A stretch of 40,626 bases of DNA from Acutalibacteraceae bacterium (GCA_963646785.1 CAVIXW010000002.1:1-40626), one strand, 5' to 3'; counted from the stretch's first letter, positions 12,775 through 31,401 are shown. Notes: generated by a model from the sequence alone, not told the origin. A program made the numbers and translations.

Positions 12775-14052
12775 TCAGATGAAACGCTGCTTCGAGGCGA
12801 TGATGTTCAGGATCCTGTCGATCAGGATCAGAGTCCCGGTAACTCCGATGGGGGGTTCCGGACATACGCAGACATATTTGGTCACCGGGGTCTCGATCTC
12901 GACGAATCCTTTCACGATCTTTCTCGTCATGCAGGATGAACCGATCGATCCGTTCGTGACGATAACGTCGGCTTCGGTGTTCAGGGCATCGTCGGAGCAG
13001 GGGATGTTGCGGGACCTTATGCGGGTCACCGTCTCCTCCTGCCATTTTTTTCCGTTGGAACAGGTTACCGCAACCGGTATCATTCCGAGGTAGGAGTACA
13101 GAAATTCAGACACCGCGGACGCGGTAGAACCGTCGCAGAACAGCGAGAAGGTACGTCCTTTCGGAAGCATATGGTACGACTCGACAAGTTCCAACGCACG
13201 GACGGCTTTCCTGCGGGCTTCGCGGATACGATCGAATGCCGGAGCGGGGTCTTTATCCAAAGCCTCGCAGACATTCGATACCCATTTCTCGATATTGTCG
13301 AATCCGACGGGGACCGGGCCTCCGACGAAACCGATACCGTATTCGGTACTGTAGAAGTCCGCTATCCTGTCGCCGTATTCGGGATATACAAGAACATTGA
13401 TCTTCGCCGAGGCGGAGTTTGCGATGTCCTCCGCGGACCACCCGGCGCCGATGGTGCAGTTGACCGTCACGCCGCAAAGACCCAGAAGATGGGAAAGCTC
13501 GTCGATCGTATCGGACCAGTTCTTATGTAGGGTGCTGATCCCGACAAGGTTGACGTCCTTCGTCTTCTCCGTGCGGAGCGGTTTTATCTTTTCCAGGATC
13601 TTCAGGACGGCGGTTTGGAATCCGTCCGCGCAGGTTCCGGAATATTCGGCATGGTCGATATGCACGGTGGGTATCTTTCCGTCTACGGATGCGATATCCT
13701 CCCCGGTGAGGGAGGCGCCCGGAGAATTGACTATCGTTATCAGCGAGGGGGACAGCGACTCAACTTTTTGGTACAGATCGAGCAGCCTGTCCTTCCCGCC
13801 GGTGACGAACCTGCCCATATCGAGATATGTACAGGGCAGACGGGGCTGGCTGAAGAAGTACCTGTCGGCGAATCTGAACATATTCCTGATCTCCGCCCTG
13901 CCGTCGCGTTCCGGATATCTGCTTTCCGATACGGATGCAGGATAGTATTTGCAGCCGGTGGGTCCGTGGATGATGCAGTATCCGTCGGATACCCCTTCGG
14001 CGGCCATCAGGGCCCCGAGGAAACTTTCGGGTCTTTCGTTCTCGAGCGACAT
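12775..14052 (-). CDS. Nitrogenase component-1-like oxidoreductase subunit (group IV Nif-like), one conserved Cys
   Basis: CIIHGPTGCKYY, RLPCTYLD, IVNSPGASLTGED, VNLVG and PVGFDNIEKW. ATG 14052 is preceded by a purine-rich tract (GAGGAGGGATGGAGAAAAG). Confidence 0.85.
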   Translation of the reverse strand: MSLENERPESFLGALMAAEGVSDGYCIIHGPTGCKYYPASVSESRYPERDGRAEIRNMFRFADRYFFSQPRLPCTYLDMGRFVTGGKDRLLDLYQKVESLSPSLITIVNSPGASLTGEDIASVDGKIPTVHIDHAEYSGTCADGFQTAVLKILEKIKPLRTEKTKDVNLVGISTLHKNWSDTIDELSHLLGLCGVTVNCTIGAGWSAEDIANSASAKINVLVYPEYGDRIADFYSTEYGIGFVGGPVPVGFDNIEKWVSNVCEALDKDPAPAFDRIREARRKAVRALELVESYHMLPKGRTFSLFCDGSTASAVSEFLYSYLGMIPVAVTCSNGKKWQEETVTRIRSRNIPCSDDALNTEADVIVTNGSIGSSCMTRKIVKGFVEIETPVTKYVCVCPEPPIGVTGTLILIDRILNIIASKQRFI

Positions 14053-16201
14053 CTTTTCTCCATCCCTCCTCTTTGGGAGCCAACGTACCTCTGATCCAGT
14101 CTTCGGCGAGCAGTCTTCCCGCGAACGGGTCGGCGGGCGGCGCACAGGGCAGGCGCGACTGGTAGATCGAGGGATCGACGTCGGCCGTTGCAGGTGTCAG
14201 AAGAACATCCGGCCTGAGACCGTTTATCTCCGACAGTTTCTCCGATATGTCCCGTTCTTCCACCGTTTCGACACGGGGGTCGGAGGATCCGTATGAAAGA
14301 TCCCTGCTGTAATCGGAACGGTGCACCAGTATCGCCTTCTGAAGCACCATCCCACACCTATCGACGGTTTCGAGGATCCAATCCACGTCGTCGCCCACCG
14401 TCATGATGCAGCACGTTTTGCCCTTCAGGAGGTTCCTGGGCCCCGCCATGAGCTCGGAGTAGCGGTCGGAATATTCCCTGATGACCGATTCCGCTTTATC
14501 TCCGACGTCAAAGAATCCGGCGACGCAGCGGACCCATGCGGAAAGACCGGAAATCCCTCCGCGGACAGGGGTCCGCAGGGTGGGCGTTCCGAACCTCTCT
14601 TCGAGGAACGAACAGAGCTTTTCGCTGAACCCGTCATGGTTCAATTTCAGACTGGCACAGGCATTGCCGCATTTTTCGAGATGTGCCAGATCGCAGAATC
14701 CCGGAAGAACGCAGTTTACCCCGATACCCATTTCGGAGAGTATCGAAGTGACCTGTTCCAGTTCGGACACGGAGCTGCTCGACATGGTTTTCACGCCGAC
14801 GAGATTGACCGTCATGGGCTCCGTTACCGTTCTTTTCGCATATTTTCCGATCAGAGCGGTCCCGGCATCGATGACGCCCTGCATAAAGTCTCCTGCGGCG
14901 TTGCCGTCTTCGTTCAGGACCGTGATCCTGACGCCGGGGTGTTCGGATTCCATTTCCTCTGCAACGGCAAGGACATCATCGCCTATGATCCCGGGCGGAC
15001 AGGAGGTGATGACCGCAAGGTCTCTTTTTCCTGCCGAGATCAGCCCGGAGAGTTCGGAACGAATCAAAGCGGTCCCTCCGAACACCATTTCGTTTTCCGA
15101 CATGTTCGTGCATACCACATCGGGGTCGGCGAACGTGTCCCACGCGGAATATCCTCTGGCATAAGCCCCTTTTATGCAGTTCGCATCCAGTTGTACGGTG
15201 AAATGGGCGCAGCTCTGCGGAGAATGAAGGACCGTCGTCAGTCCTTTTACGGAAGTGCATACGGAGGAGGCGCCGGAGAACGCGCATCCGTGGAGGGGGA
15301 GATCGTAGGTCAGGCCGCCTTTGTGCGGCAATGCCGGCTTCGGAACCTCCGGGAGAGTATGCCGGACGGAGGTTTCGGTCTTTTCGACCCTGACCCTTCC
15401 GAGGACCAATTTTTCCAGATCCGATTCGCCGAGATATTTCGCGCCGTATCTTTTTCCTTCAAGAACCTTATGTGCCAGATCCCGGAATATCTGTGCGATG
15501 TCGGAGTCGGGGAACAGTTCGACGACCGTCTTCCCGGCCTTTTCGGCTTCGAAGAAAAGCGGAGATCTGGGTATTTTGCAGATAACGGGGATCCCGACCG
15601 CTTCGGAGAACTGCCTGACCCTGGAATCCTCGTCCGCATCGCCTTTGCAGTTGAAGATTATGCCGCCGATACGGTCCGGATCGTAGTTGGAGGTTCCGCG
15701 CAGGATGTTGTTGGCGGCATACAGGGACATGAACTCGCCGGAGGTGACGATGTATACAGTATCCGCATAGCCTTTTCTCAGCGGTACCGCGAACCCCCCG
15801 CATACGACGTCTCCGAGAACGTCGTAGACCGTGATATCGCGGTCGATGTCGTCGGCACCGAGGGCCGAAAGGAGGTCGAAAGCGGAGATTATCCCTCTGC
15901 CGGCGCATCCGACGCCGGGTTCGGGCCCTCCCGCCTCGACACAGGTGCATCCTTTGTAGCCGGGGACCATAATGTCCTCGAGATGCCTGTTTTCCGGCGC
16001 GGTCTCCCTGAGATAATCGAGTACGGTGGTCTGAACGCCGTCGACGAGCGAAGACGTCGAATCATGTTTCGGGTCGCAACCGATCTGAAGCACTTTGCGC
16101 CCCATATCGGAAAGCGAGGCGGTGAGATTGGAGGAGACGGTCGATTTTCCGATCCCTCCCTTTCCGTAGACAGCTATTTTCCTGTCGGAGGTCCGTGGCA
16201 T
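13760..16201 (-). CDS. NifH-like Fe protein fused to a NifD/E-like component-1 domain
   Basis: N-terminal domain: YGKGGIGKST, GCDPKHDST, GGPEPGVGCAGRG, DVVCGGFA and SGEFMSLYAANNI. C-terminal domain: HGCAFSGA, HSPQSC and TSCPPGIIGDD. The likely ancestral end is ~14042; the last ~94 aa are an overlap extension. Confidence 0.9.
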   Translation of the reverse strand: MPRTSDRKIAVYGKGGIGKSTVSSNLTASLSDMGRKVLQIGCDPKHDSTSSLVDGVQTTVLDYLRETAPENRHLEDIMVPGYKGCTCVEAGGPEPGVGCAGRGIISAFDLLSALGADDIDRDITVYDVLGDVVCGGFAVPLRKGYADTVYIVTSGEFMSLYAANNILRGTSNYDPDRIGGIIFNCKGDADEDSRVRQFSEAVGIPVICKIPRSPLFFEAEKAGKTVVELFPDSDIAQIFRDLAHKVLEGKRYGAKYLGESDLEKLVLGRVRVEKTETSVRHTLPEVPKPALPHKGGLTYDLPLHGCAFSGASSVCTSVKGLTTVLHSPQSCAHFTVQLDANCIKGAYARGYSAWDTFADPDVVCTNMSENEMVFGGTALIRSELSGLISAGKRDLAVITSCPPGIIGDDVLAVAEEMESEHPGVRITVLNEDGNAAGDFMQGVIDAGTALIGKYAKRTVTEPMTVNLVGVKTMSSSSVSELEQVTSILSEMGIGVNCVLPGFCDLAHLEKCGNACASLKLNHDGFSEKLCSFLEERFGTPTLRTPVRGGISGLSAWVRCVAGFFDVGDKAESVIREYSDRYSELMAGPRNLLKGKTCCIMTVGDDVDWILETVDRCGMVLQKAILVHRSDYSRDLSYGSSDPRVETVEERDISEKLSEINGLRPDVLLTPATADVDPSIYQSRLPCAPPADPFAGRLLAEDWIRGTLAPKEEGWRKDVARERKTRKFPRGPDGRRRGIRRILHHPRTHRLQILSCIRIGKQISGTRRQGGDQEYVQIRRQVLLQPAPSALYISRYGQVRHRREGQAARSVPKS

Positions 16202-16225
16202 CAGGAATTGTTACGATAATATCAG

Positions 16226-16233
16226 AATTTAAA
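16226..16233 (-). promoter_or_regulatory. TATA box of the nif-like operon
   Basis: TTTAAATT on the minus strand, 25-32 nt upstream of ATG 16201, which is leaderless-type spacing. Confidence 0.55.
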
Positions 16234-16325
16234 GTTGCCTTCGGACTCTGCGCCTACGCATCGGTTATTTCTACCAACTATATAGTACAGTAACCTGTAA
16301 GCAATAAATACGGATAAGGATTAGT

Positions 16326-16396
16326 TAGGTTGCTGGATGAGTCTGCCAATCGGATCTTGAAAGCTCGAACAGATTCGACACAGGCAGTGCAGCCTA
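16326..16396 (+). promoter_or_regulatory. Putative structured 5' leader RNA upstream of the uptake operon
   Basis: Three nested stems (TAGGTTGC/GCAGCCTA, CTGCC/GGCAG, TCGGATCT/AGATTCGA) end 1 nt before the RBS GGTGA. Confidence 0.4.
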
Positions 16397-16406
16397 TGGT
16401 GAAATC

Positions 16407-18311
16407 ATGAGTAACAAACAATACCTTCCGATCGTCGTGGCAATCATCGCCGTTGTGGTGCTTGCGGCAACGATCGCTTGCGTAACACACAAAGACAATA
16501 ACGGGGGGGACGACGGCGAGACCTACTATTTTTATATCTCGACTGACGCCTCCACCAGCGGATGGCACTCTGCCACGGGAAAAGATGCGGCAGATGCGTT
16601 CGCTAAAGCCATGAATGATGACGACATTGCGTACGAATTCAATGAATACGGATATCTCTTCAAAATAGGGGATCAGACCGGATCCTGGTATTCCGCCAGG
16701 TATCTTTACAACAACACTAGCAAGGCCGCCGCCGATGGAAGTATCAAGTATCCTGTCAACGATCCTTACGGATCTTACTACTCCTCCAACGGTTGGAAGA
16801 CGGTCGTCGGATACGACGATTCGAGCAGGTCCGGAGACAAGCTCTGGGAGATGAACGGAAACGTGTTCTTCTTCTCGTTGTACGATCCCACCACCTTCGA
16901 GCATACGAACCCCACAACCGACACCAATTGGATGTCTACCGGTCCGTTCAAGAGCACCATTTCGTTCAACAACGGCGACGAAGTGTATAACTTCTACATC
17001 AGCTGCGGAGGCATCACCGGCTGGTATTCCGCTTCCGGAAAGGATTCGGCAGATGCGTTTGCCAATGCCATGAAAGCCGCCGATCTAGATTATAAAATCA
17101 ACGAATACGGATACCTTTCCAAGATCGGAGACTACGAGGGATTCTGGTATTCGGCCATGTACAATTACGGCAATACGAGCAAGATCGCCGCCGAAGCAAG
17201 TACCAGGTACGAGATCAAGGACAGCTACAATTCCATGTTTGCCTCCAACGGTTGGATAACGATCTGCGGATACGACGATTCGAGCAGGGCCGGAGACAAG
17301 CTCTGGGAGATGAACGGAAACGTATTCTTCTTCTCGTTGTACGATGCGACCTACGCACACGACAGCCCCCTCACCGATTCCAGGTGGATGGTCAGCGGTC
17401 CTTTCGGCGACAGCCAGTTCTACTACTTCTATATCTCCACCGATCAGTTCACCGCAGGCTGGCACACCGGTGTGGGGGCCGATGCGGCCGAGGCGTTCGC
17501 CAACGCCATGAAAGCAGACGACATCATCTACGAGTTCGGCGAGGATGGGTACCTTACAAGGATCGGAAATGAGAGCGGATATTGGTATTCCGCCATGTAT
17601 CTTTACAGCAATACGAGCAATGATGCCGCAGTTAATAGTATCCTGTATTCCGTCTACGATTCTTACGGATCTTACTACTCCTCCAACGGTTGGCGGACGA
17701 TCTACGGATACGATGATTCGAGCAGGGCCGGAGACAAGCTCTGGGAAATGAACGGAAACGTGTTCTTCTTCTCGCTGTATGATCCCGAAACCTTCGCTCA
17801 TACGAATCCCACCACCGACATCAAGTGGATGTCCACCGGCCCGTTCGAGAGTACCATGATCCTGAAGGGCTACGATGAAGAGTATTACTTCTACATCAGC
17901 TGCGAAGAGATCACCGGCTGGTATTCTGCCACCGGCGTGGATGCGGCAGAGGCGTTTGCCAATGCCATGGACGCCGTCGGCCTCGACTACGAGTTCAGAG
18001 CTGGGTACCTTTCCAAGATCGGAGACTACGAGGGATCCTGGTATTCGGCCATGTACAATTATGCCAACACGACCAAAATCGCTGCAGATAACAGTATTCT
18101 GTCCCCTGTTGAGAGTGGTTGGGGATATCAAGGCTCCAACGGTTGGTTGAACATCGCAGGGTATGATGATTCGAGCAGGTCCGGGGACAAGCTCTGGGAG
18201 ATGAACGGAAACGTGTTCTTCTTCTCGATGTATGATGATTACTGGATGCCCAGCATCAACCCCACAACCACCATCGCAGATTGGTCGACCACCGGACCGT
18301 TTGCTGCCTAA
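16407..18311 (+). CDS. Membrane-anchored/secreted protein with four ~150-aa tandem domains (possibly DUF4430/transcobalamin-C-like)
   Basis: N-terminal hydrophobic helix, then four repeats of YxFYIS..GW..A.G.DAA.AFA.AM...GYL.KIG...G.WY...GYDDSSR.GDKLWEMNGNVFFFS.YD...GPF. RBS GGTGA. The family assignment is tentative. Confidence 0.8.
   Translation: MSNKQYLPIVVAIIAVVVLAATIACVTHKDNNGGDDGETYYFYISTDASTSGWHSATGKDAADAFAKAMNDDDIAYEFNEYGYLFKIGDQTGSWYSARYLYNNTSKAAADGSIKYPVNDPYGSYYSSNGWKTVVGYDDSSRSGDKLWEMNGNVFFFSLYDPTTFEHTNPTTDTNWMSTGPFKSTISFNNGDEVYNFYISCGGITGWYSASGKDSADAFANAMKAADLDYKINEYGYLSKIGDYEGFWYSAMYNYGNTSKIAAEASTRYEIKDSYNSMFASNGWITICGYDDSSRAGDKLWEMNGNVFFFSLYDATYAHDSPLTDSRWMVSGPFGDSQFYYFYISTDQFTAGWHTGVGADAAEAFANAMKADDIIYEFGEDGYLTRIGNESGYWYSAMYLYSNTSNDAAVNSILYSVYDSYGSYYSSNGWRTIYGYDDSSRAGDKLWEMNGNVFFFSLYDPETFAHTNPTTDIKWMSTGPFESTMILKGYDEEYYFYISCEEITGWYSATGVDAAEAFANAMDAVGLDYEFRAGYLSKIGDYEGSWYSAMYNYANTTKIAADNSILSPVESGWGYQGSNGWLNIAGYDDSSRSGDKLWEMNGNVFFFSMYDDYWMPSINPTTTIADWSTTGPFAA
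16521..18303 (+). repeat. Four intragenic repeats (~440-460 bp period, ABAB pattern)
   Basis: Near-identical ~78-bp cores at about 16809, 17268, 17706 and 18159. Confidence 0.9.
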
Positions 18312-18334: not shown

Positions 18335-18354
18335 GAATTATCTCAGTGACCAGT

Positions 18355-19788
18355 ATGATCGATAATTCTTGGATTCACAGTTCGAATGGTACCCGTCCGA
18401 AACGTTCGATTTCGAAGATCAAAGTAAGTCTGACCTTGTCGATCTTACTGGTCGGGACCATATTGACATTATGTCTGAACGGTCTCGGAGCCAACAGCAC
18501 CCAATATCAGTCCGAAGGCATCGTCATCGATTTCGGCGGATACAAGACCGTTTGGACAGATGCCGATTACAATACGGTTTCGGATCCCGTGGAACTTTTG
18601 GACAACGCATGCAAAACCCACAGCTACACACACGCGATCGACGGTGACGGAAAAGTGGTCGAGATCAACGGAATCTCGAATACGGAGGACCATACCTGGG
18701 GTCTCTGGTATGTTCCGCGCGGAGAATTGGATTTTGTCAAAGCCGATTCGTATTCCTGTAGCGCGAAGGATTATACGGTCATGGCATGGGCGTACTGTTC
18801 TTCCGACGGTGCTCCCTCGGTCGGGGTGGATGCGTCCGGAACCAGCATTTACGGATATTCCACCGCCCGGAGCACGATCACCCTATCTCCCTCGGCAACC
18901 GAGATCCTCGGATCCCTGAATGCCGTCTCCACCCTCGTTGGAACGGATTTTTACAGCGACTATCCCAGCAGCGTCGTGGACGGCAAGGCGAACAACAGCA
19001 TCAAAGTGGTCGGGACATACACGGATCCGAGTTACGAATCCATTATGAAACTAAGTCCCGATCTTGTCATCTGCGACGGTTCGCAATACAATCACATTCA
19101 AATGGCAAAGACCCTCAGGAATTCGCAGGTCGGAGCCGTTCTCCTTTATGACGGAGAAAGCATTCAATCGATCCTCAACAACATCTTCATCGTCGGTGTC
19201 GCCATGGGTTACGAAGAGCGTTCCGAATGGGTCATCGAACAGCTGGGCGAAGCACTGCAGAATCTGGCATCCCTGATTGCAGGTCATTCCAAATCCAAAG
19301 TGATGATCGCCCTTTCGACCAGCCCGTCACCCTGGGTTGCAGGCATGGACACTTACGCTTTCGACGTCTCCGAGTCAATGGGCGGATCGAACATCTATAG
19401 CGATATGTACGGGTGGGCGCACATAAATTCGGAATATATCGGAAATAGTTCGAAATACGGCGACACCTACAACCCGGACGTGGTTATAATCCTCTCTTAC
19501 GGCGAGAACTACACCGCCACCAAAGAGTGCTATGACGAGATGATAAGCAAACTCCCGTCGAATTGGAAAAATACGAACGCATACGCCAACGAGAAGATCT
19601 ATCTCTTCTGCGAATCGCTCGGCGAGATGTCCCAGAGATCGGGGCCGAGGGTCGCCCAGTTATCGGAATTGGTGGCAAGGATCCTCTGTCCGGATTCGTT
19701 CTTCGACGGAATACCTCTTTTGAACTACCTCGGGGACGAGTATGCCAAATACCTCACGATTACCAAAGATCTCGGGTTCGGTGATTGA
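18355..19788 (+). CDS. BtuF-like ABC substrate-binding protein with N-terminal DUF4430-like domain
   Basis: Signal/TM helix; VVEINGISN...TWGLW domain; class III SBP motifs TITLSPSATEIL, VGTDFYSDYP, PSYESIMKLSPDLVI and GPRV. Start at ATG 18355 is approximate. Confidence 0.85.
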   Translation: MIDNSWIHSSNGTRPKRSISKIKVSLTLSILLVGTILTLCLNGLGANSTQYQSEGIVIDFGGYKTVWTDADYNTVSDPVELLDNACKTHSYTHAIDGDGKVVEINGISNTEDHTWGLWYVPRGELDFVKADSYSCSAKDYTVMAWAYCSSDGAPSVGVDASGTSIYGYSTARSTITLSPSATEILGSLNAVSTLVGTDFYSDYPSSVVDGKANNSIKVVGTYTDPSYESIMKLSPDLVICDGSQYNHIQMAKTLRNSQVGAVLLYDGESIQSILNNIFIVGVAMGYEERSEWVIEQLGEALQNLASLIAGHSKSKVMIALSTSPSPWVAGMDTYAFDVSESMGGSNIYSDMYGWAHINSEYIGNSSKYGDTYNPDVVIILSYGENYTATKECYDEMISKLPSNWKNTNAYANEKIYLFCESLGEMSQRSGPRVAQLSELVARILCPDSFFDGIPLLNYLGDEYAKYLTITKDLGFGD

Positions 19789-22700: not shown

Positions 22701-23434
22701 TTATATTGCTTCAACAACCAGCTGAATCTGGTATGGTCCTACCTCACCGGCGGCAAAGGGTATTACACGCCTCTGACCGTTCACGGAGATTATGTCGCCG
22801 CAGGAATGTACGACGGCGGGATCTATGTTCTGAACAAGGCCGACGGCAGTCTGATCGACAGTATGATCGTGTATCAGAAAGAGTATGGCAAACAGATGAT
22901 CGGATGTCTCAATACGCCCGTGTTCGTGGAAGATGCCGGAACGGTATACTTATTCGCCACGTACAACGACGGCCGCGGAATGAACACGACCACGTACGGT
23001 ATCGCGGTATTCACCCTTTCCGGCGGAAAACTCTCAAAAACACATGATTATCAGGATGTTTTCGGGGCGACCTGCAACCGTGTGACCTTGGCCCAGGATT
23101 TCAAAGGGATATACTTCAATTCGGGTCAGGGTACGTATTATCTGAAAACCGACGGCTCGTCGGGACTGATATCCGATTTCCTTTCGGGCATTTATGTATC
23201 GCACAGCGCCTCGGTCCTCGTCAACAACCAATACCTTTACTCGACCACCTACAGTACCCAGACGCATGCGATGGTTCTCATCGAAAAGGACGGAACGGTC
23301 ATCGGAACCTACGACGCCCCCATCAACAACTACTGTATGATAACTCCGACCGTGGTCGACGGATACATACTCTGCGGTAACGACAGCGGGGTTTACGTCG
23401 TCAGAGGGGATTTCGACCCGTATGTTCTCCCGGT
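19732..23434 (+). repeat. Tandem duplication, 2 x ~1772 bp (19732-21503 and 21663-23434, offset 1931)
   Basis: Direct comparison by eye. The centre (19931-21102 vs 21862-23033) appears identical and the flanks carry substitutions. Confidence 0.95.
19789..21657 (+). CDS. Surface protein with PQQ/BamB-like beta-propeller and C-terminal TM anchor
   Basis: Signal peptide; propeller repeats (DGTQNWSF, SAPLVAGQYIYV, LVWSYLTG, TPLTVHGDYV, TPTVVDGYI); Pro-rich linker; TM helix followed by GKK. Confidence 0.85.
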   Translation: MRGKVCSVAAVLLVVICCIPSINSDAADSDPYMLIDYGNGSTEWSKVTGDSGTVYDIVHGTLAADNHSCEYAGGVLTIDGKSAQTVGQAADGGSYSESGTTGVTVYSYWQVYRWSDNEWAAISALDEDYQGDNLAVGYYPEGMIPVETPEYRSSWTCIGGDAENSVNQNAEIYTGSGETIWQFEPPSGNSKGVYGAVLYARGQVLVKYGMADGDLQGSIVSYNVKDGTQNWSFSFDLGDQLSVSAPLVAGQYIYVQTSDNQIYMFDWRIGPGEDGSNVRTIEGMPVGSDTPIPESIDGSGVVGGYGFGLTSMVFDSGCVFVKSANGMLYCFNNQLNLVWSYLTGGKGYYTPLTVHGDYVAAGMYDGGIYVLNKADGSLIDSMIVYQKEYGKQMIGCLNTPVFVEDAGTVYLFATYNDGRGMNTTTYGIAVFTLSGGKLAKTYDYLGVFGATCNRVTLAQDFKGIYFNSDQGTYYLKTDGSSGLISDFLSGSYATHSASVLVNNQYLYSTTYSTQTHAMVLIEKDGTVIGTYDYPINNYCMITPTVVDGYILCGNDSGIYVVRGDFNPYVPPVDPPVPDVPSGTESDNHGGLVGYLILAIMLICIVGVILRIILGKKESIIHK

Positions 23435-24644
23435 ACGTCAGGTGTCCAATCTCGAGAGGCTGGTGGTCTATCTTGTGCTGATCATCGTGCCGGTCACCAT
23501 TCTCTGGCTCGTTCTGAGATTCGGACTCAAGTGGGAAAAACCGTTCAGCCAAATCGTCACCTCGATCAAAACGTTCCTGTACGGGGAACAGTACACGCAC
23601 AACACCCGCAGCAAACACCGTCTCTGGCTGGTGCTGTCCATCGGAGCGATACTGACCGCGGTTCTTGCGCTGTTATCCCTATGTCTGGGTCCGGAGACGA
23701 CTTTGAGCCCGGGAGAAGCTTTGTCCGCATTGATCTCGTCCCTGTCCAAAGGCGGCAACCATCTTACCTATGAGGAGATGCTGATCTATAATTCCAGGCT
23801 GCCCCGTACACTCACGGCATTGGTGGTCGGTATCGGTCTTTCGGTTGCGGGTGCGGTATATCAGGCGACCATCAAGAACCCGTTGGTCGAACCGTACATC
23901 ATGGGTGTGTCTTCCGGTGCTGGAACCCTGGCGATTGCCGTTATAATGTTCGATTTCACTTTCTTCGGGCTGTTCTCCCATCAGAGTCCGTTCTTAACCG
24001 CCATCGCCGCCATCGTCGGAGGCCTTCTGGCATTCGGGCTTACCATGCTGCTTGCCGAAAAGACCGGCGGAAAGTCGATGAACTACGTGCTTGCGGGTAT
24101 CATAATCGGATTGGTGTTCTCGGCCGTACAGTCCCTAATGATGGTCATGGGCGGCAAGAACATCAATTCGGCCCTGTCCTGGCTGTATGGATCGTTCGCA
24201 TCGATGACCTGGGAGAAGATATGGCTGGTCCTGATCCCCGTGATCGCCCTGTCCCTGATCCCGTATATCTGGTCGAAGGAGCTGAACCTCGTCCTGCTCG
24301 GAGAGGACCAGGCCCGGCAGATGGGTCTCGATGCGGAAAGATTCGACCGGTGGATGCTCATCATCTCCTCGGTACTGACCGCATTCTGCGTGGCGTTCGT
24401 CGGGATCATCGGATTCGTCGGACTGGTGGTCCCCCACCTCTGCCGTATGATCCTCGGCGGAGACCACAGGCTGATGCTGCCCGCTTCGATGGCGTTCGGC
24501 GGAATACTGATGATCGCCGCGGACGTGCTTGCAAGAGTGCTCGTGAGCGGGTACGAGCTGCCCGTCGGAGCCATCACGACGGTCATCGGCGTGCCGGTGT
24601 TCGCATACCTGCTGATCAAGAGAGGTAAGAGCTATGATATATGA
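21720..24644 (+). CDS. Beta-propeller extracellular domain fused to a BtuC/FecCD ABC permease
   Basis: The N-terminal ~570 aa nearly equal the upstream protein. Permease motifs follow: RLPRTLTA, NPLVEPYIMGVSSGA, LGEDQARQMG, GIIGFVGLVVPH and ELPVGAIT. An alternative start at ATG 21654 has an ATGA overlap. Confidence 0.9.
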   Translation: MRGKVCSVAAVLLVIICCIPSINSSAADSGPYMLIDYGNGSAEWSKVAGDSGTVYDIVHGTLAADNHSCEYAGGVLTIDGKSAQTVGQAADGGSYSESGTTGVTVYSYWQVYRWSDNEWAAISALDEDYQGDNLAVGYYPEGMIPVETPEYRSSWTCIGGDAENSVNQNAEIYTGSGETIWQFEPPSGNSKGVYGAVLYARGQVLVKYGMADGDLQGSIVSYNVKDGTQNWSFSFDLGDQLSVSAPLVAGQYIYVQTSDNQIYMFDWRIGPGEDGSNVRTIEGMPVGSDTPIPESIDGSGVVGGYGFGLTSMVFDSGCVFVKSANGMLYCFNNQLNLVWSYLTGGKGYYTPLTVHGDYVAAGMYDGGIYVLNKADGSLIDSMIVYQKEYGKQMIGCLNTPVFVEDAGTVYLFATYNDGRGMNTTTYGIAVFTLSGGKLSKTHDYQDVFGATCNRVTLAQDFKGIYFNSGQGTYYLKTDGSSGLISDFLSGIYVSHSASVLVNNQYLYSTTYSTQTHAMVLIEKDGTVIGTYDAPINNYCMITPTVVDGYILCGNDSGVYVVRGDFDPYVLPVRQVSNLERLVVYLVLIIVPVTILWLVLRFGLKWEKPFSQIVTSIKTFLYGEQYTHNTRSKHRLWLVLSIGAILTAVLALLSLCLGPETTLSPGEALSALISSLSKGGNHLTYEEMLIYNSRLPRTLTALVVGIGLSVAGAVYQATIKNPLVEPYIMGVSSGAGTLAIAVIMFDFTFFGLFSHQSPFLTAIAAIVGGLLAFGLTMLLAEKTGGKSMNYVLAGIIIGLVFSAVQSLMMVMGGKNINSALSWLYGSFASMTWEKIWLVLIPVIALSLIPYIWSKELNLVLLGEDQARQMGLDAERFDRWMLIISSVLTAFCVAFVGIIGFVGLVVPHLCRMILGGDHRLMLPASMAFGGILMIAADVLARVLVSGYELPVGAITTVIGVPVFAYLLIKRGKSYDI

Positions 24645-24653: not shown

Positions 24654-25748
24654 ATGTCATTCAAAACCTTCATGCTCCGCCTGATCAGGGGTACCGGAAC
24701 GACCCACATACAGATCAAGAAGCACAGTTCGATGTTCCTGTTCGTACTTGCCGTGATCGTGGTGTTCCTGGTCATCGTCCTGTCGATATCCCTCGGCCCC
24801 AGCGGATGCTACAACCCCGTCACGGCCCTATCCTCGCTGTTCTCCGCGGCCTTCGGTTCGGGCGGAATGACCGATATGGAACTTGTGGTCTTCGATCAGA
24901 GGTTCCCCCGTACCGTTGCCGCGCTGGCGGTAGGTATCGGATTGTCGATAGCGGGATGCGTCTACCAGGCTATTATTCGGAACCCCCTGGTCGACCCGTA
25001 TATCATGGGCGTGTCTTCGGGTGCCGGAACCACCGCGATAGCTTCGATAGCATTCGGATTCACCCTTTTCGGACTGGTTCCTTCCGATTCGATCTACCTT
25101 ACCGCGATCATGGCCATCATCGGAGGTCTTCTGGCATTCGCATGCACGATGATCATAGGCGAGCTGGCCGGCGGGAGCAATAACGCATACGTCCTCTCCG
25201 GAGTCGTCGTCGGACTGATATTCTCGGCAATACAGACGGTCCTCATCATATTCGCCGGAGAGCATCTTTCGAGCGTGCTTCTATGGCTGTTCGGTTCGTT
25301 CTCGGAGGTCACTTACAAACAGGCCATCCCGGTCTTCTTCGTGGCCATAGCGTTGTCTTTGATATGTCTCAAATGGTCGAAGGAGCTCAATCTGATACTG
25401 CTCGGGGAGGACCAGGCCCGGCAGATGGGACTGAACGCCCATCGTTTCAGCACGTTCATGCTCATCCTCGCATCGGTACTCACCTCGGTCTGCGTCGCCT
25501 TCGTCGGGATCATCGGTTTCGTCGGTCTCGTGGTCCCCCACTTCTGCCGTATGCTGTTCGGCGGCGACCACAGGCTGGTCATGCCCGCCTCGATCGCCTT
25601 CGGAGGCGCATTGATGGTGGCGGCGGACATCGCATCCAGGATGCTGATGTCCGGTTACGAGTTGCCTGTGGGTGCGATAACCACACTGATCGGAGTTCCG
25701 GTCTTTGCATATTTACTGTTCAAAAAGGGGAAGATGTACAATGGATGA
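24654..25748 (+). CDS. BtuC/FecCD-family ABC permease
   Basis: RFPRT, RNPLVDPYIMGVSSGA, LGEDQARQMG and GIIGFVGLVVPH. RBS GAGGTG. Confidence 0.93.
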   Translation: MSFKTFMLRLIRGTGTTHIQIKKHSSMFLFVLAVIVVFLVIVLSISLGPSGCYNPVTALSSLFSAAFGSGGMTDMELVVFDQRFPRTVAALAVGIGLSIAGCVYQAIIRNPLVDPYIMGVSSGAGTTAIASIAFGFTLFGLVPSDSIYLTAIMAIIGGLLAFACTMIIGELAGGSNNAYVLSGVVVGLIFSAIQTVLIIFAGEHLSSVLLWLFGSFSEVTYKQAIPVFFVAIALSLICLKWSKELNLILLGEDQARQMGLNAHRFSTFMLILASVLTSVCVAFVGIIGFVGLVVPHFCRMLFGGDHRLVMPASIAFGGALMVAADIASRMLMSGYELPVGAITTLIGVPVFAYLLFKKGKMYNG

Positions 25749-26547
25749 AACTACGCCGCTGTTGGAACTGCGGAGAATGAATAAGATCTACGATAACGGT
25801 TATCACGCCGACAAGGACGTTTCGTTCACGATACCGTCCGGAAAGCTGGTGGGGCTCATCGGTCCGAACGGCTGCGGAAAGACCACCATGATGCGGTGCA
25901 TCAACCGCATGCACGAGCCGTCCAGCGGAGACATACTCATCGACGGAGAAAGCGTTCTGGACAAAACTCCGGGGGAGATCGCGAAACTGGTATCGAACGT
26001 GCCGGCGGAGATGAACGCCTCCTTCGGACTTACCGTGTTCGAGACCGTGATGCTCGGACGCTACCCCTACCTTCAGAACATGTGGTGGGAGACCGAAGAG
26101 GACGAGACAATAGTCGAGGAAACCCTGAAAAAGTTCGGCGTGCACCATCTCGAGGACCGTTCCCTGAACATGCTGTCCTCCGGAGAACGTCAGAGGGTTC
26201 TGATAGCCAAAGCATACGTTCAGGAGCCGAGGCTGATGCTAGTCGACGAGCCCACCTCCCACCTTGACATGAAATACAAGCTCGACGTGATGGAATATCT
26301 GAAAGCCATGGTCAAACAGGATATGACGATCCTGGTGGCAGAGCACGACATCTCCCTTATGGCCCGTTACTGCGACCTCTGCATCATAATGAAGAAGGGC
26401 AGGGTCGTGTCCATGGGCAATCCGAAGGAGGTCATCACGGAGGAGCTGATCCGCGATGTTTACGAGGTCGAAGCCTCGGTCGGTTTGGACAAGGACGGAG
26501 AGATCTACGTTCTTCCGAAGAAGTTCATCGGAAACGGACTGATCTGA
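25741..26547 (+). CDS. ABC transporter ATP-binding protein (BtuD/FecE type)
   Basis: GPNGCGKTT, LSSGERQRV, DEPTSHLD and HD. Start moved to ATG 25741. Confidence 0.94.
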   Translation: MDETTPLLELRRMNKIYDNGYHADKDVSFTIPSGKLVGLIGPNGCGKTTMMRCINRMHEPSSGDILIDGESVLDKTPGEIAKLVSNVPAEMNASFGLTVFETVMLGRYPYLQNMWWETEEDETIVEETLKKFGVHHLEDRSLNMLSSGERQRVLIAKAYVQEPRLMLVDEPTSHLDMKYKLDVMEYLKAMVKQDMTILVAEHDISLMARYCDLCIIMKKGRVVSMGNPKEVITEELIRDVYEVEASVGLDKDGEIYVLPKKFIGNGLI

Positions 26548-26599: not shown

Positions 26600-27715
26600 A
26601 TGCAGACAGGGCCAAGGAAGGAACTTTCAGGATTACCCAAAACCGTTCACGGCGGACAGGGTTGGAAGATCGAAGGAGTGGACGATTATAGTCAGAACCT
26701 AAACCCCTTCGGCCCTCCGGAAAGTCTCGGCAGGGTCATTTCGGATTCGTTTTCGGATACGGGACATTATCCCGATGCGGACTGTACCGAGGTTCGGAAC
26801 GCGATCGGAAAACTTTACGGGCTCGGCCCCGACTGCGTGACGATGGGTGCGGGTTCCTCCGAGATAATCCGTAACTTCCCCAACGTCTTCATACGTCCCG
26901 GGGACCGCGTTCTTATCCCCGCGCCCTCGTTCGCCGAATATACCCAGCAGTGCAGGATCACCGGTGCGGCCGTCGACCTCTTCCCGCTTCTTCCGGAGGA
27001 CGATTTCCGGATCGACGAGCAGAGGCTGTTCGGTTGCCTGGATTCCGGGAACTACCGGATCCTGTATCTGTGCAACCCCAACAACCCTACGGGACGCATC
27101 GAATGCAGAGAGAAGATCGAACGCATCGTCAGAAAATGCGAAGAGCTCGGGGTTCTCGTCTTCCTCGACGAGACCCTGCTGGAACTCGTGAAAGGCGAAC
27201 GGTCAATATCGCTTTCCGGAGAAGTCTGCAGTTTTACCAATCTCCTTGTCGCGCATTCCTTCACCAAATCCTTTGCCATCCCGGGCATAAGGGTGGGTTT
27301 CGCACTTTCCAATCCCGACATAATACGCGAGATGGAGAAGGTCAAGCTTCCCTGGAACGTCGGCACCGTCGAGCAGGCCGCCGCATTGCATCTTGTCGAC
27401 AACTGTCCCGGATACGTAGAGGATGCGGCCGACGTCATGAGCCGCGAATCCGACCGGATGTTCGCACAGCTCAGGGACATGGGATTTCCCGTCCGGGCCA
27501 TATCGGATTCCTTCTTCTACTTCCTGGACCTGAGCCCTATCGGACTGACGGGGGCGAAGTTCAAGGAACTCATGCTGAAAGAAGGCATCATGGTCCGGGA
27601 CTGCGCCTCGTTCGGCCCGCAGTACGATTCGTACGTGCGGTTCTGTGTCAAAAACAAGGAACGTAATGACCGTTTCCTGTCGGCCGTCAGAAAGGTCCTG
27701 GGTTCGCTAAGGTGA
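26600..27715 (+). CDS. cobD: L-threonine-O-3-phosphate decarboxylase (PLP class I/II)
   Basis: VHGG, DYSQNLNPFGPP, CNPNNPTG, SFTKSFAIPGIRVG and VRDC, in a cob-gene context. Confidence 0.88.
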   Translation: MQTGPRKELSGLPKTVHGGQGWKIEGVDDYSQNLNPFGPPESLGRVISDSFSDTGHYPDADCTEVRNAIGKLYGLGPDCVTMGAGSSEIIRNFPNVFIRPGDRVLIPAPSFAEYTQQCRITGAAVDLFPLLPEDDFRIDEQRLFGCLDSGNYRILYLCNPNNPTGRIECREKIERIVRKCEELGVLVFLDETLLELVKGERSISLSGEVCSFTNLLVAHSFTKSFAIPGIRVGFALSNPDIIREMEKVKLPWNVGTVEQAAALHLVDNCPGYVEDAADVMSRESDRMFAQLRDMGFPVRAISDSFFYFLDLSPIGLTGAKFKELMLKEGIMVRDCASFGPQYDSYVRFCVKNKERNDRFLSAVRKVLGSLR

Positions 27716-27719
27716 TCTG

Positions 27720-28763
27720 GTGGATATCTGGATCGACGGAGTTCTGATGGTTGTTCTCGCGCTTTTGTTCGATCGTTTCCCGGGAGACCCTCCGAACAGA
27801 TACCATCCTCTGCGCTGGATGGGGAATCTCCTGCAGGCCATCGACGACCGTCTCCGGAGAAGACTGTCCGCTACCGCCACCGTGTTGGGTTTCCTGTCGT
27901 ATGTTCTGGTCCTGCTGATATTCGGAGGCGTCGCACTGCTCGTCACCGGGTTCATCCGCATCGAGTTCGGAGACCTGGCGCAGTTCGATGCGTTCGGGAT
28001 CGGTTCCTCGGTCGGGGAGATCCTATGGATCGTCGTTTCCGCATATTTCCTGAAAATGACCTTCGCCCTGTTCGCATTCAGAAAGTTCTGCAGACCGATC
28101 GAAGCCGATCTCAGAAACGGCGATCTCGATGCGGCCGCCGACAAGACCCAGATGATGGTAAACCGCAAAATGAGGGGAATGGACCTCCCGCATATCACCA
28201 GCTCCTGCTGCGAGACCATATCGGAGAATCTGGTGGACAGTGTCCTGTCCCCGCTTCTTTACTGCGGGGTTTTCGGACTTCCCGGGGCCATAGCGTTCCG
28301 GTGTGCCAACCTGATGGATGCGATGTGGGGTAGACTGAATGATAAATACTGCTGCCTGGGTCATTTTCCTGCCAGGTGGGATGACGTGCTCGGATTCATA
28401 CCTTCGAGGCTGTCTCCGGTCTTCATACTCATCGCTTCGAAACTGATGCGCATCCGCTCTTCCGGCAGCGTTCTGAAGGCTGCCCTCCGCGAACACAGGA
28501 AGACCCCCAGCCCGAACAGCGGGTGGCCGATGACCGCGACCGCCGCCGCCATGGGCGTATCGTTCGAGAAGGAGGGAGTGTACGTAATGGGCGAAGGTCC
28601 GCTTCCCTCCGTCGACGAAATCTCCCTGTGCTATCGTCTGATCGAACTGACCTCGATCGTCTTCACCATCATCGTCGTTCTTCCTCTGACCGCATATCTG
28701 GGAATCCACGTTCAGATTATATTTGAGGACTTTATTCACGGATTATTCGGAGTGTTCAGATGA
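27720..28763 (+). CDS. cbiB: Adenosylcobinamide-phosphate synthase CbiB
   Basis: GDPPNRYHPLRWMG, ETISENLVDSV, NLMDAMWG, ARWDD and SPNSGWP. Confidence 0.93.
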   Translation: MDIWIDGVLMVVLALLFDRFPGDPPNRYHPLRWMGNLLQAIDDRLRRRLSATATVLGFLSYVLVLLIFGGVALLVTGFIRIEFGDLAQFDAFGIGSSVGEILWIVVSAYFLKMTFALFAFRKFCRPIEADLRNGDLDAAADKTQMMVNRKMRGMDLPHITSSCCETISENLVDSVLSPLLYCGVFGLPGAIAFRCANLMDAMWGRLNDKYCCLGHFPARWDDVLGFIPSRLSPVFILIASKLMRIRSSGSVLKAALREHRKTPSPNSGWPMTATAAAMGVSFEKEGVYVMGEGPLPSVDEISLCYRLIELTSIVFTIIVVLPLTAYLGIHVQIIFEDFIHGLFGVFR

Positions 28764-29872
28764 AATATATCAAATCGACCGAGGTCCGCGAGGAAGGCGA
28801 GTACGAGGGAACGGCTATTATTCGCCTTGCCGAGAGGATGGAGGTTTTCAGCAGTGCTCCGCTTAACGGCGGCCTGACGGTCACCGATACGCTGTTTATC
28901 ATGCAGGTGCCGCACAAGTTCGCCTGCAGGGATTATCTTTCAGTGCTCAAGGCAAAAGCCGAACAGTACGGTCTGCCGGAGGATTCGGTCGGGTTCATGA
29001 CCGCCGCCGAGGTCAGATACGTGTTCAACCACGCCGTCGAAACGGTGGACGGTACCGAGGTGTTTTCGGCCGCGACCGCCGGCGTGACCAATTGCGTCTG
29101 CGCGGGTGATGTTCTCGAAGACTGGGAACGCAAGGCCCGGAGGTCCGAGGAGATCTACAGGAGACTTATCGGAGGGACCATCAACATCGTGACCGTCGTC
29201 CCGGTTCCCCTGACCGACGCCGGCAAGGTCAACCTTCTTGCGCCCATGATCGAGGCCAAGGTTCTTGCGATGAGGGATCTGGGATATGCGGAGACCGGAA
29301 CGACCTCGGATGCCCTGGCCGTCGTCTCGCCCGTCGGAGAGGACAGACTTCCCTTTGCGGGGACCGGCACCGCGGTCGGTATCGCCGCCGCCCGTACCGT
29401 CAGGAAGGTCGTCGCACAGGCCCTGCATCTACGCGGCGAGTCACCGGAACCCCCCACCTCCCTGGAGATGCTCGGCCGCAAAGGCATCACTGACGAAATG
29501 CTCTGGGACTGCGCATCCGCATGCGGTCTCAACGAAGATCTCAAAGGGGAATTCGACGACGTAATCGACTCGATGGGTTCCGATCCCGACATCTGCGCCC
29601 TGATCTACGCGATACTTTCGGCCGGAGAGATGGCGGAGAAGAACTGCATCTGCAATCAGATGGACGGCGAGGTCCCGGATGTTCTGGTCGACGGTTCGAT
29701 CTCCATGTTCCTCGCGGGCCGTATCTCCGAGACCCGCGGGAGCGATGCCACCGTCGATCTGCTGAGGATGAGGCCCCTGAAGGAGGCCGGCCTTCCGGAA
29801 TATCTGGAGAACGCCGCGTACGGACTCGTGGCCGGCGTGGTCGGATACATAACGGGGTACTCGGATGAATGA
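28760..29872 (+). CDS. cbiZ: Adenosylcobinamide amidohydrolase CbiZ fused to a divergent CobZ-like domain (CbiS-like)
   Basis: SSAPLNGG, GFMTAA, TAGVTN, GTINI, IEAK and TGTTSD. The C-terminal ~140 aa (GIT..., DPDICALI, GLVAGVV) resemble archaeal CobZ. Confidence 0.85.
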   Translation: MKYIKSTEVREEGEYEGTAIIRLAERMEVFSSAPLNGGLTVTDTLFIMQVPHKFACRDYLSVLKAKAEQYGLPEDSVGFMTAAEVRYVFNHAVETVDGTEVFSAATAGVTNCVCAGDVLEDWERKARRSEEIYRRLIGGTINIVTVVPVPLTDAGKVNLLAPMIEAKVLAMRDLGYAETGTTSDALAVVSPVGEDRLPFAGTGTAVGIAAARTVRKVVAQALHLRGESPEPPTSLEMLGRKGITDEMLWDCASACGLNEDLKGEFDDVIDSMGSDPDICALIYAILSAGEMAEKNCICNQMDGEVPDVLVDGSISMFLAGRISETRGSDATVDLLRMRPLKEAGLPEYLENAAYGLVAGVVGYITGYSDE

Positions 29873-30800
29873 GGGTCCCGAAGACGGTTCTGGCGCGGAT
29901 CTCGGCATATGCGATACGGAGGAACATCCGACCATCGCCGAAGCTCCGGAAAGAGCGGGCATCGGGGGTGCTCTGAAGTGTATGGTATCCTTCTTCACCG
30001 TCATCCGTCTCGATGTCGGCGAGCGCGAGATGGAGTCCATGGAACGCAACTTCTGGCTCGTTCCCCTACTCGGTGCGCTGAACGGTCTTCTGGTGTTTCT
30101 GGTATGCATCCTTCTTTCCCTTTGCGAAATGTCCACCATGGTCATCGCGGTCGCAGCCCTTTTCACCGCATATATTTTCTCGAAGTTCCTCCATTTCGAC
30201 GGACTCACCGATTTCGGCGACGGGATCATAGTATCTTCCGGAAAGCGGGAGGACCATATCCGTGCCCTCAAGGACAGTCTGATAGGTGCGGGAGGGTTCG
30301 GTGTCGCGCTGTGTGTGGTCCTTCTGACCGTTGCGCTCTACGAGCATATCGGATCGGAGACCTATTCCATTTTCGGGTCAAAGTTCCTGTTCCTAGGTAC
30401 TTTCGCCTTCGCGGCCGAGATCCTGGTAAAGAACGCGCAGGTCGCCGCCGCCGCATTCGGAAACCCCGGCACCGGAATGGCTTCGAGACAGGTCGGCCTG
30501 ACCAACGGAGGGTCGCTGCTCAGATCGACCGTTCTGGTCGCCGTCCTGCTTCTGGCCCCGTTCCTCATCGAACGGGCCTTCATCACGAATGCGGACAGCT
30601 CCTGGACCGCGGACGTTTCTGTTCTGTGCGTCATCTACGTGTTCGGCCTGATCTCATCGATCGTTGTGGGATATCTGATGGCACGCAAGGCCAACGGCAC
30701 ATTCGGATTCGTCAACGGGGATATCCTGGGGGCCACCAACGAGATCTCCCGCTGTGTCGTCCTTCTCGTCACCGCCGTGATCCTGGGACTTATGCTGTGA
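29865..30800 (+). CDS. cobS: Adenosylcobinamide-GDP ribazoletransferase (cobamide synthase)
   Basis: Multi-TM protein with LHFDGLTDFGDG, ALKDSLIGAGG and FGFVNGDILGATNE. Confidence 0.93.
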   Translation: MNEGPEDGSGADLGICDTEEHPTIAEAPERAGIGGALKCMVSFFTVIRLDVGEREMESMERNFWLVPLLGALNGLLVFLVCILLSLCEMSTMVIAVAALFTAYIFSKFLHFDGLTDFGDGIIVSSGKREDHIRALKDSLIGAGGFGVALCVVLLTVALYEHIGSETYSIFGSKFLFLGTFAFAAEILVKNAQVAAAAFGNPGTGMASRQVGLTNGGSLLRSTVLVAVLLLAPFLIERAFITNADSSWTADVSVLCVIYVFGLISSIVVGYLMARKANGTFGFVNGDILGATNEISRCVVLLVTAVILGLML

Positions 30801-30804
30801 TAAC

Positions 30805-31401
30805 ATGGAGGCGCTGATCAATGCGGGCGGAAAAGGTACGCGGATGGGGCAGTGCACCGTCGAGAAACCCATGCAGCCTGTGGGAAAGGCCCCAATCATC
30901 CAGCATGTGATCGACGCAATGCGCAATTCTACCGAAATAGACCGTATCCTGGTTTCGGTAAGCCCCCATACCGTGAACACCGAGAAGTATCTCCGGGACC
31001 AGGGGATCGAGACGATCAGAACGAGCGGGGAGGATTTCATGATGGATCTCCGCGCGTCCTTTTCGACGCTCGAAGGGGAGCATGTGCTCACCTGTCCGTC
31101 CGACGTCCCCTTCGTCACTTCCGCGATCTTCGACCGCACCATCCGTTACTTCAAACCCGAAATGCAGTCTCTGATCGTTCTCATCTCGGAAGATACTGTG
31201 GTCAACAAAGGCATCGCTCCGTCGTACACCATGAATCTCAACGGCAGGGAGTGGGTCCTGTCCGGGGTCACGGTCATGGACAGACTTGCCACGATCGAAG
31301 GAAAATATCTGAATGAGGAATATCTGTTCACGGATTGGGAGGAGCTCGCCATGAATCTCAATACTCAGAACGAGCTCTCCCTTGCACGCAGAATGTGCTG
31401 A
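30805..31401 (+). CDS. cobY: Adenosylcobinamide-phosphate guanylyltransferase CobY
   Basis: ALINAGGKGTRMG..EKP, VSPHT, PSDVP and NLNT, in a cob-gene context. Confidence 0.85.
   Translation: MEALINAGGKGTRMGQCTVEKPMQPVGKAPIIQHVIDAMRNSTEIDRILVSVSPHTVNTEKYLRDQGIETIRTSGEDFMMDLRASFSTLEGEHVLTCPSDVPFVTSAIFDRTIRYFKPEMQSLIVLISEDTVVNKGIAPSYTMNLNGREWVLSGVTVMDRLATIEGKYLNEEYLFTDWEELAMNLNTQNELSLARRMC

Follow-up and report, generated by a model that had tools for sequence, protein, structure and literature searches.

A fused nitrogenase-like reductase family probably linked to vitamin B12 in a Methanomassiliicoccales-type methanogen

The closest described relatives of the enzyme considered here are nitrogenase-like (NFL) proteins in which a NifH module is fused to a component-1 subunit, NflD, and followed by a K/N-like gene, the architecture of the family that Dos Santos noticed in 2012. 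The accessible part of that paper places the fusion in archaea, Firmicutes and Deltaproteobacteria, and nitrogenase-like genes beside ATP-binding cassette (ABC) transporters, but mentions the fusion as 'data not shown', without function, cluster pattern, regulon or B12 link, and its remark on cobalamin concerns the single-subunit NflD, later CfbD (PMC3464626). Here we analyzed such a gene pair, nflHD and nflK, on a 40,626-nucleotide stretch of DNA (GCA_963646785.1, CAVIXW010000002.1:1-40626; hereafter the window), together with the corrinoid uptake and assembly genes that face it. The layout of the locus is real and non-random, and the function of the architecture is so far uncharacterized. 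Three separate lines, namely gene neighborhood, predicted regulation and a B12-binder fold modeled in the importer, tie the pair to B12, and we infer that the substrate of NflHD-NflK is probably a corrinoid or a tetrapyrrole of the B12 pathway.

A 'fused nifH/nifE' is listed in a table within the available portion of PMC4153887. A 2026 review finds gene context of little help for the substrates of uncharacterized NFL enzymes, and the part of its text at hand uses none of the terms 'fusion', 'fused' and 'Methanomassiliicoccales' (PMC13474568). Our literature search, with most subscription papers outside its scope, found no paper assigning a function to the fused NflHD-NflK family. A 2020 review by Ghebreamlak and Mansoorabadi reportedly covers divergent members of the nitrogenase superfamily and might discuss the fused clade.

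Membership of the nitrogenase superfamily is clear. In a Pfam scan the minus-strand open reading frame (ORF) at 13760-16201 contains Fer4_NifH and Oxidored_nitro domains and that at 12775-14052 an Oxidored_nitro domain, with PF00142 and PF00148 over their cut-offs. The NifH module (about residues 1-265 of NflHD) keeps the P-loop, Cys99 and Cys134, all invariant in an alignment of 20 homologs, as are Cys306, Cys331 and Cys401 of the NflD domain. NflK has a single cysteine at a P-cluster position, Cys34, invariant across 18 aligned homologs, in a column occupied by a cysteine in BchZ and an aspartate in BchB of the labeled references. D and K together present a 3+1 pattern that matches the columns of BchY (L228) and BchZ (L061, L228; L numbers denote loci, G genomes and C contigs), that is, four P-cluster cysteines against six in NifD/NifK. 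The column of the NifD cysteine that binds the iron-molybdenum cofactor (FeMo-co) has no cysteine counterpart in the aligned NflD and NflK. Because of the 3+1 pattern, NflD-NflK probably carries one bridging [4Fe-4S] cluster.

The pair scores below all curated family cut-offs: the H module falls under those of CfbC and NifH, and those of BchY, BchZ, BchN and BchB lie far above the scores of the pair. We built a FastTree from 192 out of 338 non-redundant component-1 domains, with loci picked to keep every group and to thin the Bch set. The fused-family D domains formed one clade (SH support 0.987) and the K domains paired with them a second (0.989), each separate from Nif, Vnf, NifE/N, Bch, CfbD and Mar-like sequences. 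With 31 sequences in IQ-TREE, the fused D clade received an ultrafast bootstrap (UFBoot) of 65, rising to 94 when the unfused NflD of Methanomicrobiales was included as sister, and deep nodes were weak. The first-pass annotation had suggested a possibly undescribed system and had named phylogeny among its tests; neither the D nor the K domain groups with CfbD, Nif/Vnf, Bch or Mar-like proteins, and this test did not refute the suggestion. The sister loci (L036-L047) encode unfused H and D, in some cases with K, and hold this position in both trees; in L036 and L044 the H protein passes the CfbC cut-off and the D protein is not CfbD, so that misannotation as Cfb is likely. Unlabeled NFL proteins from one Polyangiaceae genome (L273, L282, L290), possibly of Group VI, branch elsewhere in these trees, which were built without verified Isr, Nfa or Group VI references. 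A plasmid search matched 254 records, all below 60% identity, and the 30 listed are nifD, nitrogenase component 1 or unannotated.

Several known enzyme types were compared with the pair, and nitrogenase, CfbCD and MAR were set aside. A true nitrogenase (Nif/Vnf/Anf) is rejected by the 3+1 cysteines, the missing FeMo-co cysteine, the scores below the TIGR cut-offs and the absence of nifE and nifN from the source genome (G000; 1.92 Mb, 99.5% complete), whose only three PF00148 matches are NflD, NflK and CfbD. A CfbCD paralog is rejected too: NflK scores 19.3 bits against the TIGR03282 cut-off of 268.4, the trees separate them, and the genome has its own cfb cluster on contig C40, where CfbD (373.6 bits, over the cut-off) lies beside cfbC-, cfbE- and cfbB-like genes. 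CfbCD (Group IV-B, the F430 reductive cyclase) resembles our pair as a methanogen NFL enzyme often found beside a CbiA/CfbB-family amidase, and cobyrinate a,c-diamide, if it is the nfl substrate, resembles Ni-sirohydrochlorin a,c-diamide; it differs in having one catalytic subunit where NflHD-NflK has two. COR (BchXYZ) and DPOR (BchLNB), in Group V, share the three D-type cysteines plus one K-type ligand in the same columns and lack the FeMo-co cysteine, but the nfl proteins fall below their model cut-offs and form a separate clade (deep nodes weakly supported); moreover, the nfl H is fused to D, the context is not photosynthetic, and the hosts are methanogens, clostridia and spirochaetes. MAR (Group IV-C) was represented by a Mar-like stand-in (L283, matching 9fmg_A at E 2.6e-119), which branches as a separate clade (UFBoot 96) and shows a cysteine near the FeMo-co column that the nfl proteins lack. 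MAR, ISR (IV-F) and Nfa (IV-A) carry a B-type radical SAM gene, and MAR and ISR stand in sulfur contexts, in distinction from the nfl loci. Group VI enzymes, as far as the available text of Meheust et al. 2020 (10.1101/765248) describes them, likewise keep at most four of six P-cluster cysteines and have a proposed tetrapyrrole role, but their genes accompany those of radical SAM proteins in Elusimicrobia, Gracilibacteria and Myxococcales.

Going by its closest named matches, we judged the host to be a Methanomassiliicoccales-type methanogen. The ORF map and family scans bore out the layout first described for the locus, a two-gene Nif-like unit facing eleven co-oriented genes across a 205-bp divergent intergenic region (16202-16406). 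Among the products of the cobalamin genes, CbiB and CbiZ/CbiS pass curated cut-offs and CobD, CobS and CobY stay below. The features are:

12775-14052, minus strand: nflK, 425-aa K/BchZ-like subunit (PF00148)
13760-14044, minus strand: read-through tail of the nflHD frame under table 11, overlapping nflK (from ortholog stops)
14045-16201, minus strand: nflHD, NifH-like ATPase/reductase fused to NflD (PF00142 and PF00148)
16333-16349, no strand: 17-bp palindromic putative operator in the divergent promoter region (matrix search)
16407-18311, plus strand: membrane-anchored repeat surface protein (repeats aligned; no Pfam match)
18346-19788, plus strand: class III (BtuF-fold) substrate-binding protein (SBP; Peripla_BP_2, PF01497) with a predicted N-terminal transcobalamin/haptocorrin beta-domain (fold search)
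19789-21657, plus strand: beta-propeller surface protein, tandem duplicate (PQQ_2)
21654-24644, plus strand: beta-propeller fused to a FecCD/BtuC permease, probable start near 21720 (family scans)
24654-25748, plus strand: second FecCD/BtuC permease, 58% identical to the fused one (family scans)
25705-26547, plus strand: BtuD/FecE-type ABC ATPase (family scans)
26600-27715, plus strand: cobD-like threonine-phosphate decarboxylase (best match TIGR01140, 232.9 bits; cut-off 290.55)
27720-28763, plus strand: cbiB (TIGR00380 over cut-off)
28760-29872, plus strand: cbiZ/cbiS adenosylcobinamide amidohydrolase (PF01955; NF038002 over cut-off)
29865-30800, plus strand: cobS (PF02654; TIGR00317 105.5 bits, cut-off 110)
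30805-31401, plus strand: cobY-like guanylyltransferase (PF12804; best matches TIGR00454 and NF045495, both below cut-off)

A scan of 34 window ORFs gave no match to radical SAM proteins (NifB), a further component-1 domain, CbiX or a CobB/CfbB amidotransferase, consistent with the statement that nifB/E/N and cfbA/B/E are absent from the window. Rfam and tRNA searches of the window found nothing, cobalamin riboswitches included. Outside the locus, the ORF at 38878-40152 encodes a Mur-ligase-family protein that was not among our CfbE-model comparisons; the CfbE of this genome lies on C40.

The fusion as called has 813 aa, but the functional NflHD probably ends at residue 719, because its orthologs stop after a GW(R/K) tail, mostly at 712-732 aa, and codon 720 (14042-14044) is CGA where the orthologs in L116 and L118 have TGA; the frame then runs about 94 codons into nflK. 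All nine CGA codons of the frame lie at or after codon 720. Elsewhere in the genome CGA is nearly absent from gene interiors (4 of 66,812 aligned interior codons), it also takes the place of the orthologs' stop in hypF (C33) and a FecCD gene (C41), and 4 of 237 gene ends show TGA/CGA swaps. CGA may be a stop or unassigned codon in this genome, but a tRNA-Arg(TCG) is present and the change from TGA is a single transition; our literature search on CGA as a stop codon returned nothing. In other loci two ORFs take the place of the fusion, with the break at differing positions (L117 2747-4942, L153, L154, L161, L166), and in a close relative (L087, G067:C6:14143-15417) nflK contains an in-frame TAG, possibly read through as pyrrolysine.

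Of the 201 genomes of the order, 123 encode NflK homologs, as do all 17 of the genus; a genome often has several paralogs, and nfl homologs also occur in non-methanogens. To define neighborhoods we took 60 of 150 listed matches, favoring high scores and long contigs, and counted a locus when any cob gene, cbiZ, chelatase, FecCD or DUF4430 gene lay within about 8 kb (L155, a duplicate, and L020, without a K anchor, were dropped). Such a corrinoid-type neighbor accompanied nine of the 10 loci of the genus itself, 7/15 in other genera of the subclade, 30/40 paralogs, 4/4 in other archaea and 4/15 in bacteria. The total of 54 out of 84 loci compares with 3 among 20 stretches of 20 kb picked arbitrarily from one relative, in a tally where kin are not independent, many loci offer only 11-13 kb in range, and some reference proteins were drawn from the tallied loci themselves. 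The predicted linkage of nfl homologs to corrinoid importers and cob genes thus recurs across lineages.

The arrangement itself varies. Within the genus, the exact window layout was found in 2 of 10 loci, those of the two closest relatives; in six nflHD faces cobD-cbiB-cbiZ-cobS-cobY with no importer between them, in one the importer is inverted, and one has neither importer nor cob genes. These counts do not support the divergent coupling as a conserved unit. Further away, the importer lies upstream of and co-oriented with the nfl genes in another family (L126, L129, L130), L128 has a divergent cbiP and a downstream cbiA, L131 likewise has cbiA downstream, and nflHDK precedes an importer and cobD-cbiB-cbiZ-cobS in L367 and L368. 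A cassette of SBP, FecCD, ATPase, a cbiZ-like gene, chlI, chlD, nflHD, nflK and cobN recurs among paralogs and distant archaea (L007, L008, L157, L160, L168, L171, L401). The nfl run of L017 includes an adenosyltransferase gene of the PduO type, those of L391 and L399 include one of the CobA type, and the source genome encodes a CobA adenosyltransferase. In five loci (L005, L134, L143, L144, L156) the genes around nflHDK include DUF1638, URO-D/MtaA-family and hydantoinase-family members, a hint of corrinoid methyltransferase contexts.

The second line of evidence concerns regulation. The divergent region holds a palindrome (16333-16349, two mismatches to the consensus YTGGAT-N5-ATCCAR), from which, with the sites of seven relatives, we built a matrix; the threshold was a score of at least 12, and shuffled controls reached 5-13. 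Scoring only loci that matched a P-loop regular expression and counting outside the training loci, we found sites upstream of nflHD in 2/4 loci of the genus, 4/7 of other genera, 16/33 paralogous loci, 0/2 of other archaea and 2/13 of bacteria, many of them 30-80 bases before nflHD at loci without a cob neighbor. Perfect sites number 13 and 9 in two complete genomes, against none for the reversed pattern. Besides the window, G026 and G070 carry the palindrome. Sites stand before the cbiD and cbiL/F/H/C operons and before chlI/D, paired cobN genes, a second nflHD, FecCD importers and the gene of a sodium-solute symporter; several more are intragenic or next to unrelated genes. A second window palindrome (36879-36895) lies between the unannotated genes 36347-36742 (minus) and 36899-37489 (plus); perfect sites in a similar position near topA were seen in L337, L338 and G026:1144532.

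In other genomes the control element is a riboswitch. Rfam placed cobalamin riboswitches at the head of same-strand runs with nflHD in 7 of 30 other loci (L017; L018, marginal at 34.6 bits; L027, 166 nt upstream of nflHD; L030; L387; L393; L399) and nearby, not heading the run, in four more (L013, L025, L391, L404). Locus L025 has six riboswitch matches in 19 kb around nrdD, motAB, YitT and nflHDK, and the genome of L027 (G266), a 1.9-Mb Peptococcaceae, has 22 component-1 matches, including Vnf and Mar-like sets. From these shared signals, nflHD-nflK probably belongs to a B12/cobalt regulon with B12 uptake and synthesis genes. Co-regulation of the two arms, another of the earlier expectations, is thus supported at sequence level by a common putative operator and by riboswitches over homologs elsewhere.

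The same palindrome lies before de novo cbi genes of the source genome, and for this reason the purely scavenging role that the first-pass annotation had envisaged is unsupported; its corrinoid link is retained. This genome has hemA, B, C and D, hemL-like, cbiC, D, G and J, cbiA-like and methylase genes, so loss of de novo tetrapyrrole synthesis is ruled out as the driver there. NflK homologs persist in 14 of 20 listed same-family genomes without a cbiD match, which fits a step needed for salvage too. Replacement of CbiJ was also rejected, given CbiJ in the source genome and in 17/17 genomes of the genus and nflK in genomes without cbiD. Alongside this early-insertion cbi route, the genome has two CobN genes with ABC-2 and FecCD neighbors, plus chlI/chlD (C41, C45, C19; L260, L261, L263).

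The third line is the importer, in which a class III SBP, FecCD permeases, an ATPase and a transcobalamin-fold element are present, at scores below the Btu equivalog cut-offs. The N-terminal domain of the SBP (about 18502-18852), modeled with a pLDDT of 84.7, is closest in fold to the bacterial protein 3u7z and to haptocorrin, transcobalamin and intrinsic factor (Z 9.3-10.9, root-mean-square deviation 2.5-2.8, 87-92 residues), with the next-best fold at only Z 5.9. Foldseek put the same proteins on top at E above 0.001, and the ESM Atlas gave a lead to DUF4430 (score 0.81); Pfam and hhalign detected no DUF4430 in this domain or in the surface repeats. The model thus gives the SBP a B12-binder fold of the transcobalamin type, a shared fold being no proof of binding. 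The surface protein at 16407-18311 consists of four aligned repeats of about 145 aa, whose hhalign match to the SBP domain is not significant. Their top ESM Atlas match is a DUF4430 cluster (0.87), the family being annotated on 17% of that cluster, a lead to a possible DUF4430/transcobalamin-like binder.

The genes are shared with archaeal cobinamide salvage (BtuFCD, CbiZ, CbiB, CobY, CobS), to which this locus adds the predicted transcobalamin-fold domain, the propeller-permease fusion and the repeat surface protein; we know of no NFL enzyme in that pathway. The stand-alone propeller gene duplicates the front of the next gene (19732-21503 against 21663-23434, 97.2% identity over 1,772 bp) and is single-copy in the closest relatives (L115, L116); the duplication looks recent and could be real or an assembly effect. 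A second importer of like type, with SBP, beta-propeller, permease, ATPase and a large leucine-rich-repeat surface protein, is unlinked to any nfl gene (L264, G000:C4:25542-34700).

The partners of the pair (CbiA, CbiP, CobN/ChlID, adenosyltransferases, importers and CbiZ), which differ from lineage to lineage, bracket one step on both sides, and we therefore propose, tentatively, that NflHD-NflK is an ATP-driven [4Fe-4S] corrinoid reductase that would bring cobalt to Co(II)/Co(I) for adenosylation; we put this reading at roughly 40%. Cobamide scarcity would derepress the regulon, and the surface proteins and importer would take up corrinoids. The reductase would then act on free corrinoids, either imported cobinamide or cobamide or the cob(II)yrinate a,c-diamide that CbiA or CobN/ChlID supplies, stripping upper ligands and supplying the adenosyltransferase. 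After adenosylation, CbiP or CbiZ, then CobD/CbiB, CobY and CobS, would complete the cofactor. CobR and PduS are flavoproteins, and RACo/RamA are ASKHA ATPases. The proposed enzyme would resemble them in reducing corrinoid cobalt before adenosylation or methyl transfer, RACo being ATP-coupled as well, but is of a different family; it would match, anaerobically and with ATP coupling, the role of CobR, the flavin corrin reductase. According to the accessible text of PMC7242693, CobR carries out its reduction after chelation and ahead of adenosylation in the aerobic pathway.

Several observations weigh against this reading. No corrinoid-type neighbor was found in the retrieved DNA of 30 of the 84 loci, and riboswitches were absent nearby in 19 of 30, some on short contigs or of unknown taxon. 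In some genomes component-1 matches number as many as eight, which suggests several substrates. RACo/RamA ATP-dependent corrinoid activators coexist with nfl genes in 5/5 genomes tested, and two genomes with nflK homologs (G101 and G006, the latter one contig and 99% complete) gave no CobA or PduO match in a search that did not extend to EutT. In the parts of the literature at hand, all characterized NFL enzymes whose catalytic cluster is a simple [4Fe-4S] one (DPOR, COR, CfbCD) act on ring double bonds and not on the metal (PMC13474568, PMC7242693), and free flavin is said to be enough for Co(I) formation in some organisms (PMC7242693).

The main rival, which we consider rather unlikely, is C=C reduction in the macrocycle, as in COR, DPOR and CfbCD, on an imported or oxidized tetrapyrrole: a damaged corrinoid, a factor-level intermediate, or a metal-free corrin metalated next by CobN/ChlID, with CbiZ-like and isochorismatase-family amidohydrolases and CbiA/CbiP reworking the side chains. 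The cysteine pattern identical to BchY/BchZ and the recurrent cassette ending in cobN fit this, and no adenosyltransferase is required, but CbiJ, the one known de novo ring reduction, is already encoded in these genomes, and to our knowledge no described salvage intermediate needs ring reduction.

Metal scavenging is improbable. The reductase would loosen the metal-ring bond, a CobN-like de-chelatase would free the metal, cobalt or another, from imported tetrapyrroles or chelates, and ABC-2 exporters would expel the ring; CobN/ChlI/ChlD chelatase genes do lie near 21/40 paralogous loci of the order and ABC-2 exporters near 15/40, and CbiK follows nflK in L007 and L009. HmuS, a homolog of CobN, acts on heme. 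It is a de-chelatase according to the title of PMC12583661. In the window's own subclade, however, cobN fell within the DNA examined in 1 of 25 loci, and the nfl genes are tied to those of nucleotide-loop assembly, for which the corrin must be intact. Taking cobalt out of a corrin is also chemically hard.

We give little credence to a B12-independent substitute for a cobamide-dependent reaction, in the manner of MetE or NrdD and with no action on tetrapyrroles. It is favored by metE heading the riboswitch run of L399, by nrdD beside riboswitches in L025 and by the 11/15 bacterial loci without cob neighbors; nfl genes nevertheless lie inside importer-chelatase-amidohydrolase-adenosyltransferase runs across many lineages, and methanogens of this kind cannot do without corrinoids. 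Salvage or repair of F430 or heme, or supply of nickel or iron, with the cob genes as incidental neighbors, is very improbable, and the earlier suggestion of these substrates gained no specific support. A fold search cannot tell heme, siderophore and B12 binders apart in the class III C-terminal part of the SBP, several other FecCD importers of the source genome carry the same palindrome, and one perfect site lies near the cfb cluster of G026, but the predicted transcobalamin-fold domain, the cobalamin riboswitches, the homologs in non-methanogens and the lack of any site scoring at least 12 upstream of cfbC in the source genome point elsewhere. That the pair is of a known type, be it nitrogenase, CfbCD or MAR, or unrelated and here by chance, can largely be dismissed, for although the best PDB sequence matches of the D domain are a nitrogenase alpha chain and 9d9u/9fmg (presumably MarD; E ~1e-23 and ~1e-19) and a few loci have cysK close to nflK (L034, L133, L145, L146), the scores below all cut-offs, the four of six P-cluster cysteines, the separate clade, the genome's own cfb cluster and the neighbor enrichment over background all argue against it.

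On a broader reading, we lean towards fused NflHD-NflK being a further functional NFL class dedicated to B12, which would activate or repair scavenged corrinoids with ATP-gated low-potential electrons. It would be partnered by an importer with a transcobalamin-type capture domain and controlled by an archaeal B12/cobalt operator or bacterial cobalamin riboswitches, and the CobN/ChlID-paired paralogs would act on different scavenged tetrapyrroles.

For one widespread NFL clade, gene context, operator and riboswitches all point to B12, which narrows the candidate substrates to a few and suggests tractable bacterial hosts. If the proposal is true, the nitrogenase superfamily would gain a new chemistry and anaerobic B12 salvage or synthesis a new step, and nflHDK genes would no longer be miscounted as markers of nitrogen fixation. 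It would also bear on the competition for cobamides among gut and rumen methanogens.

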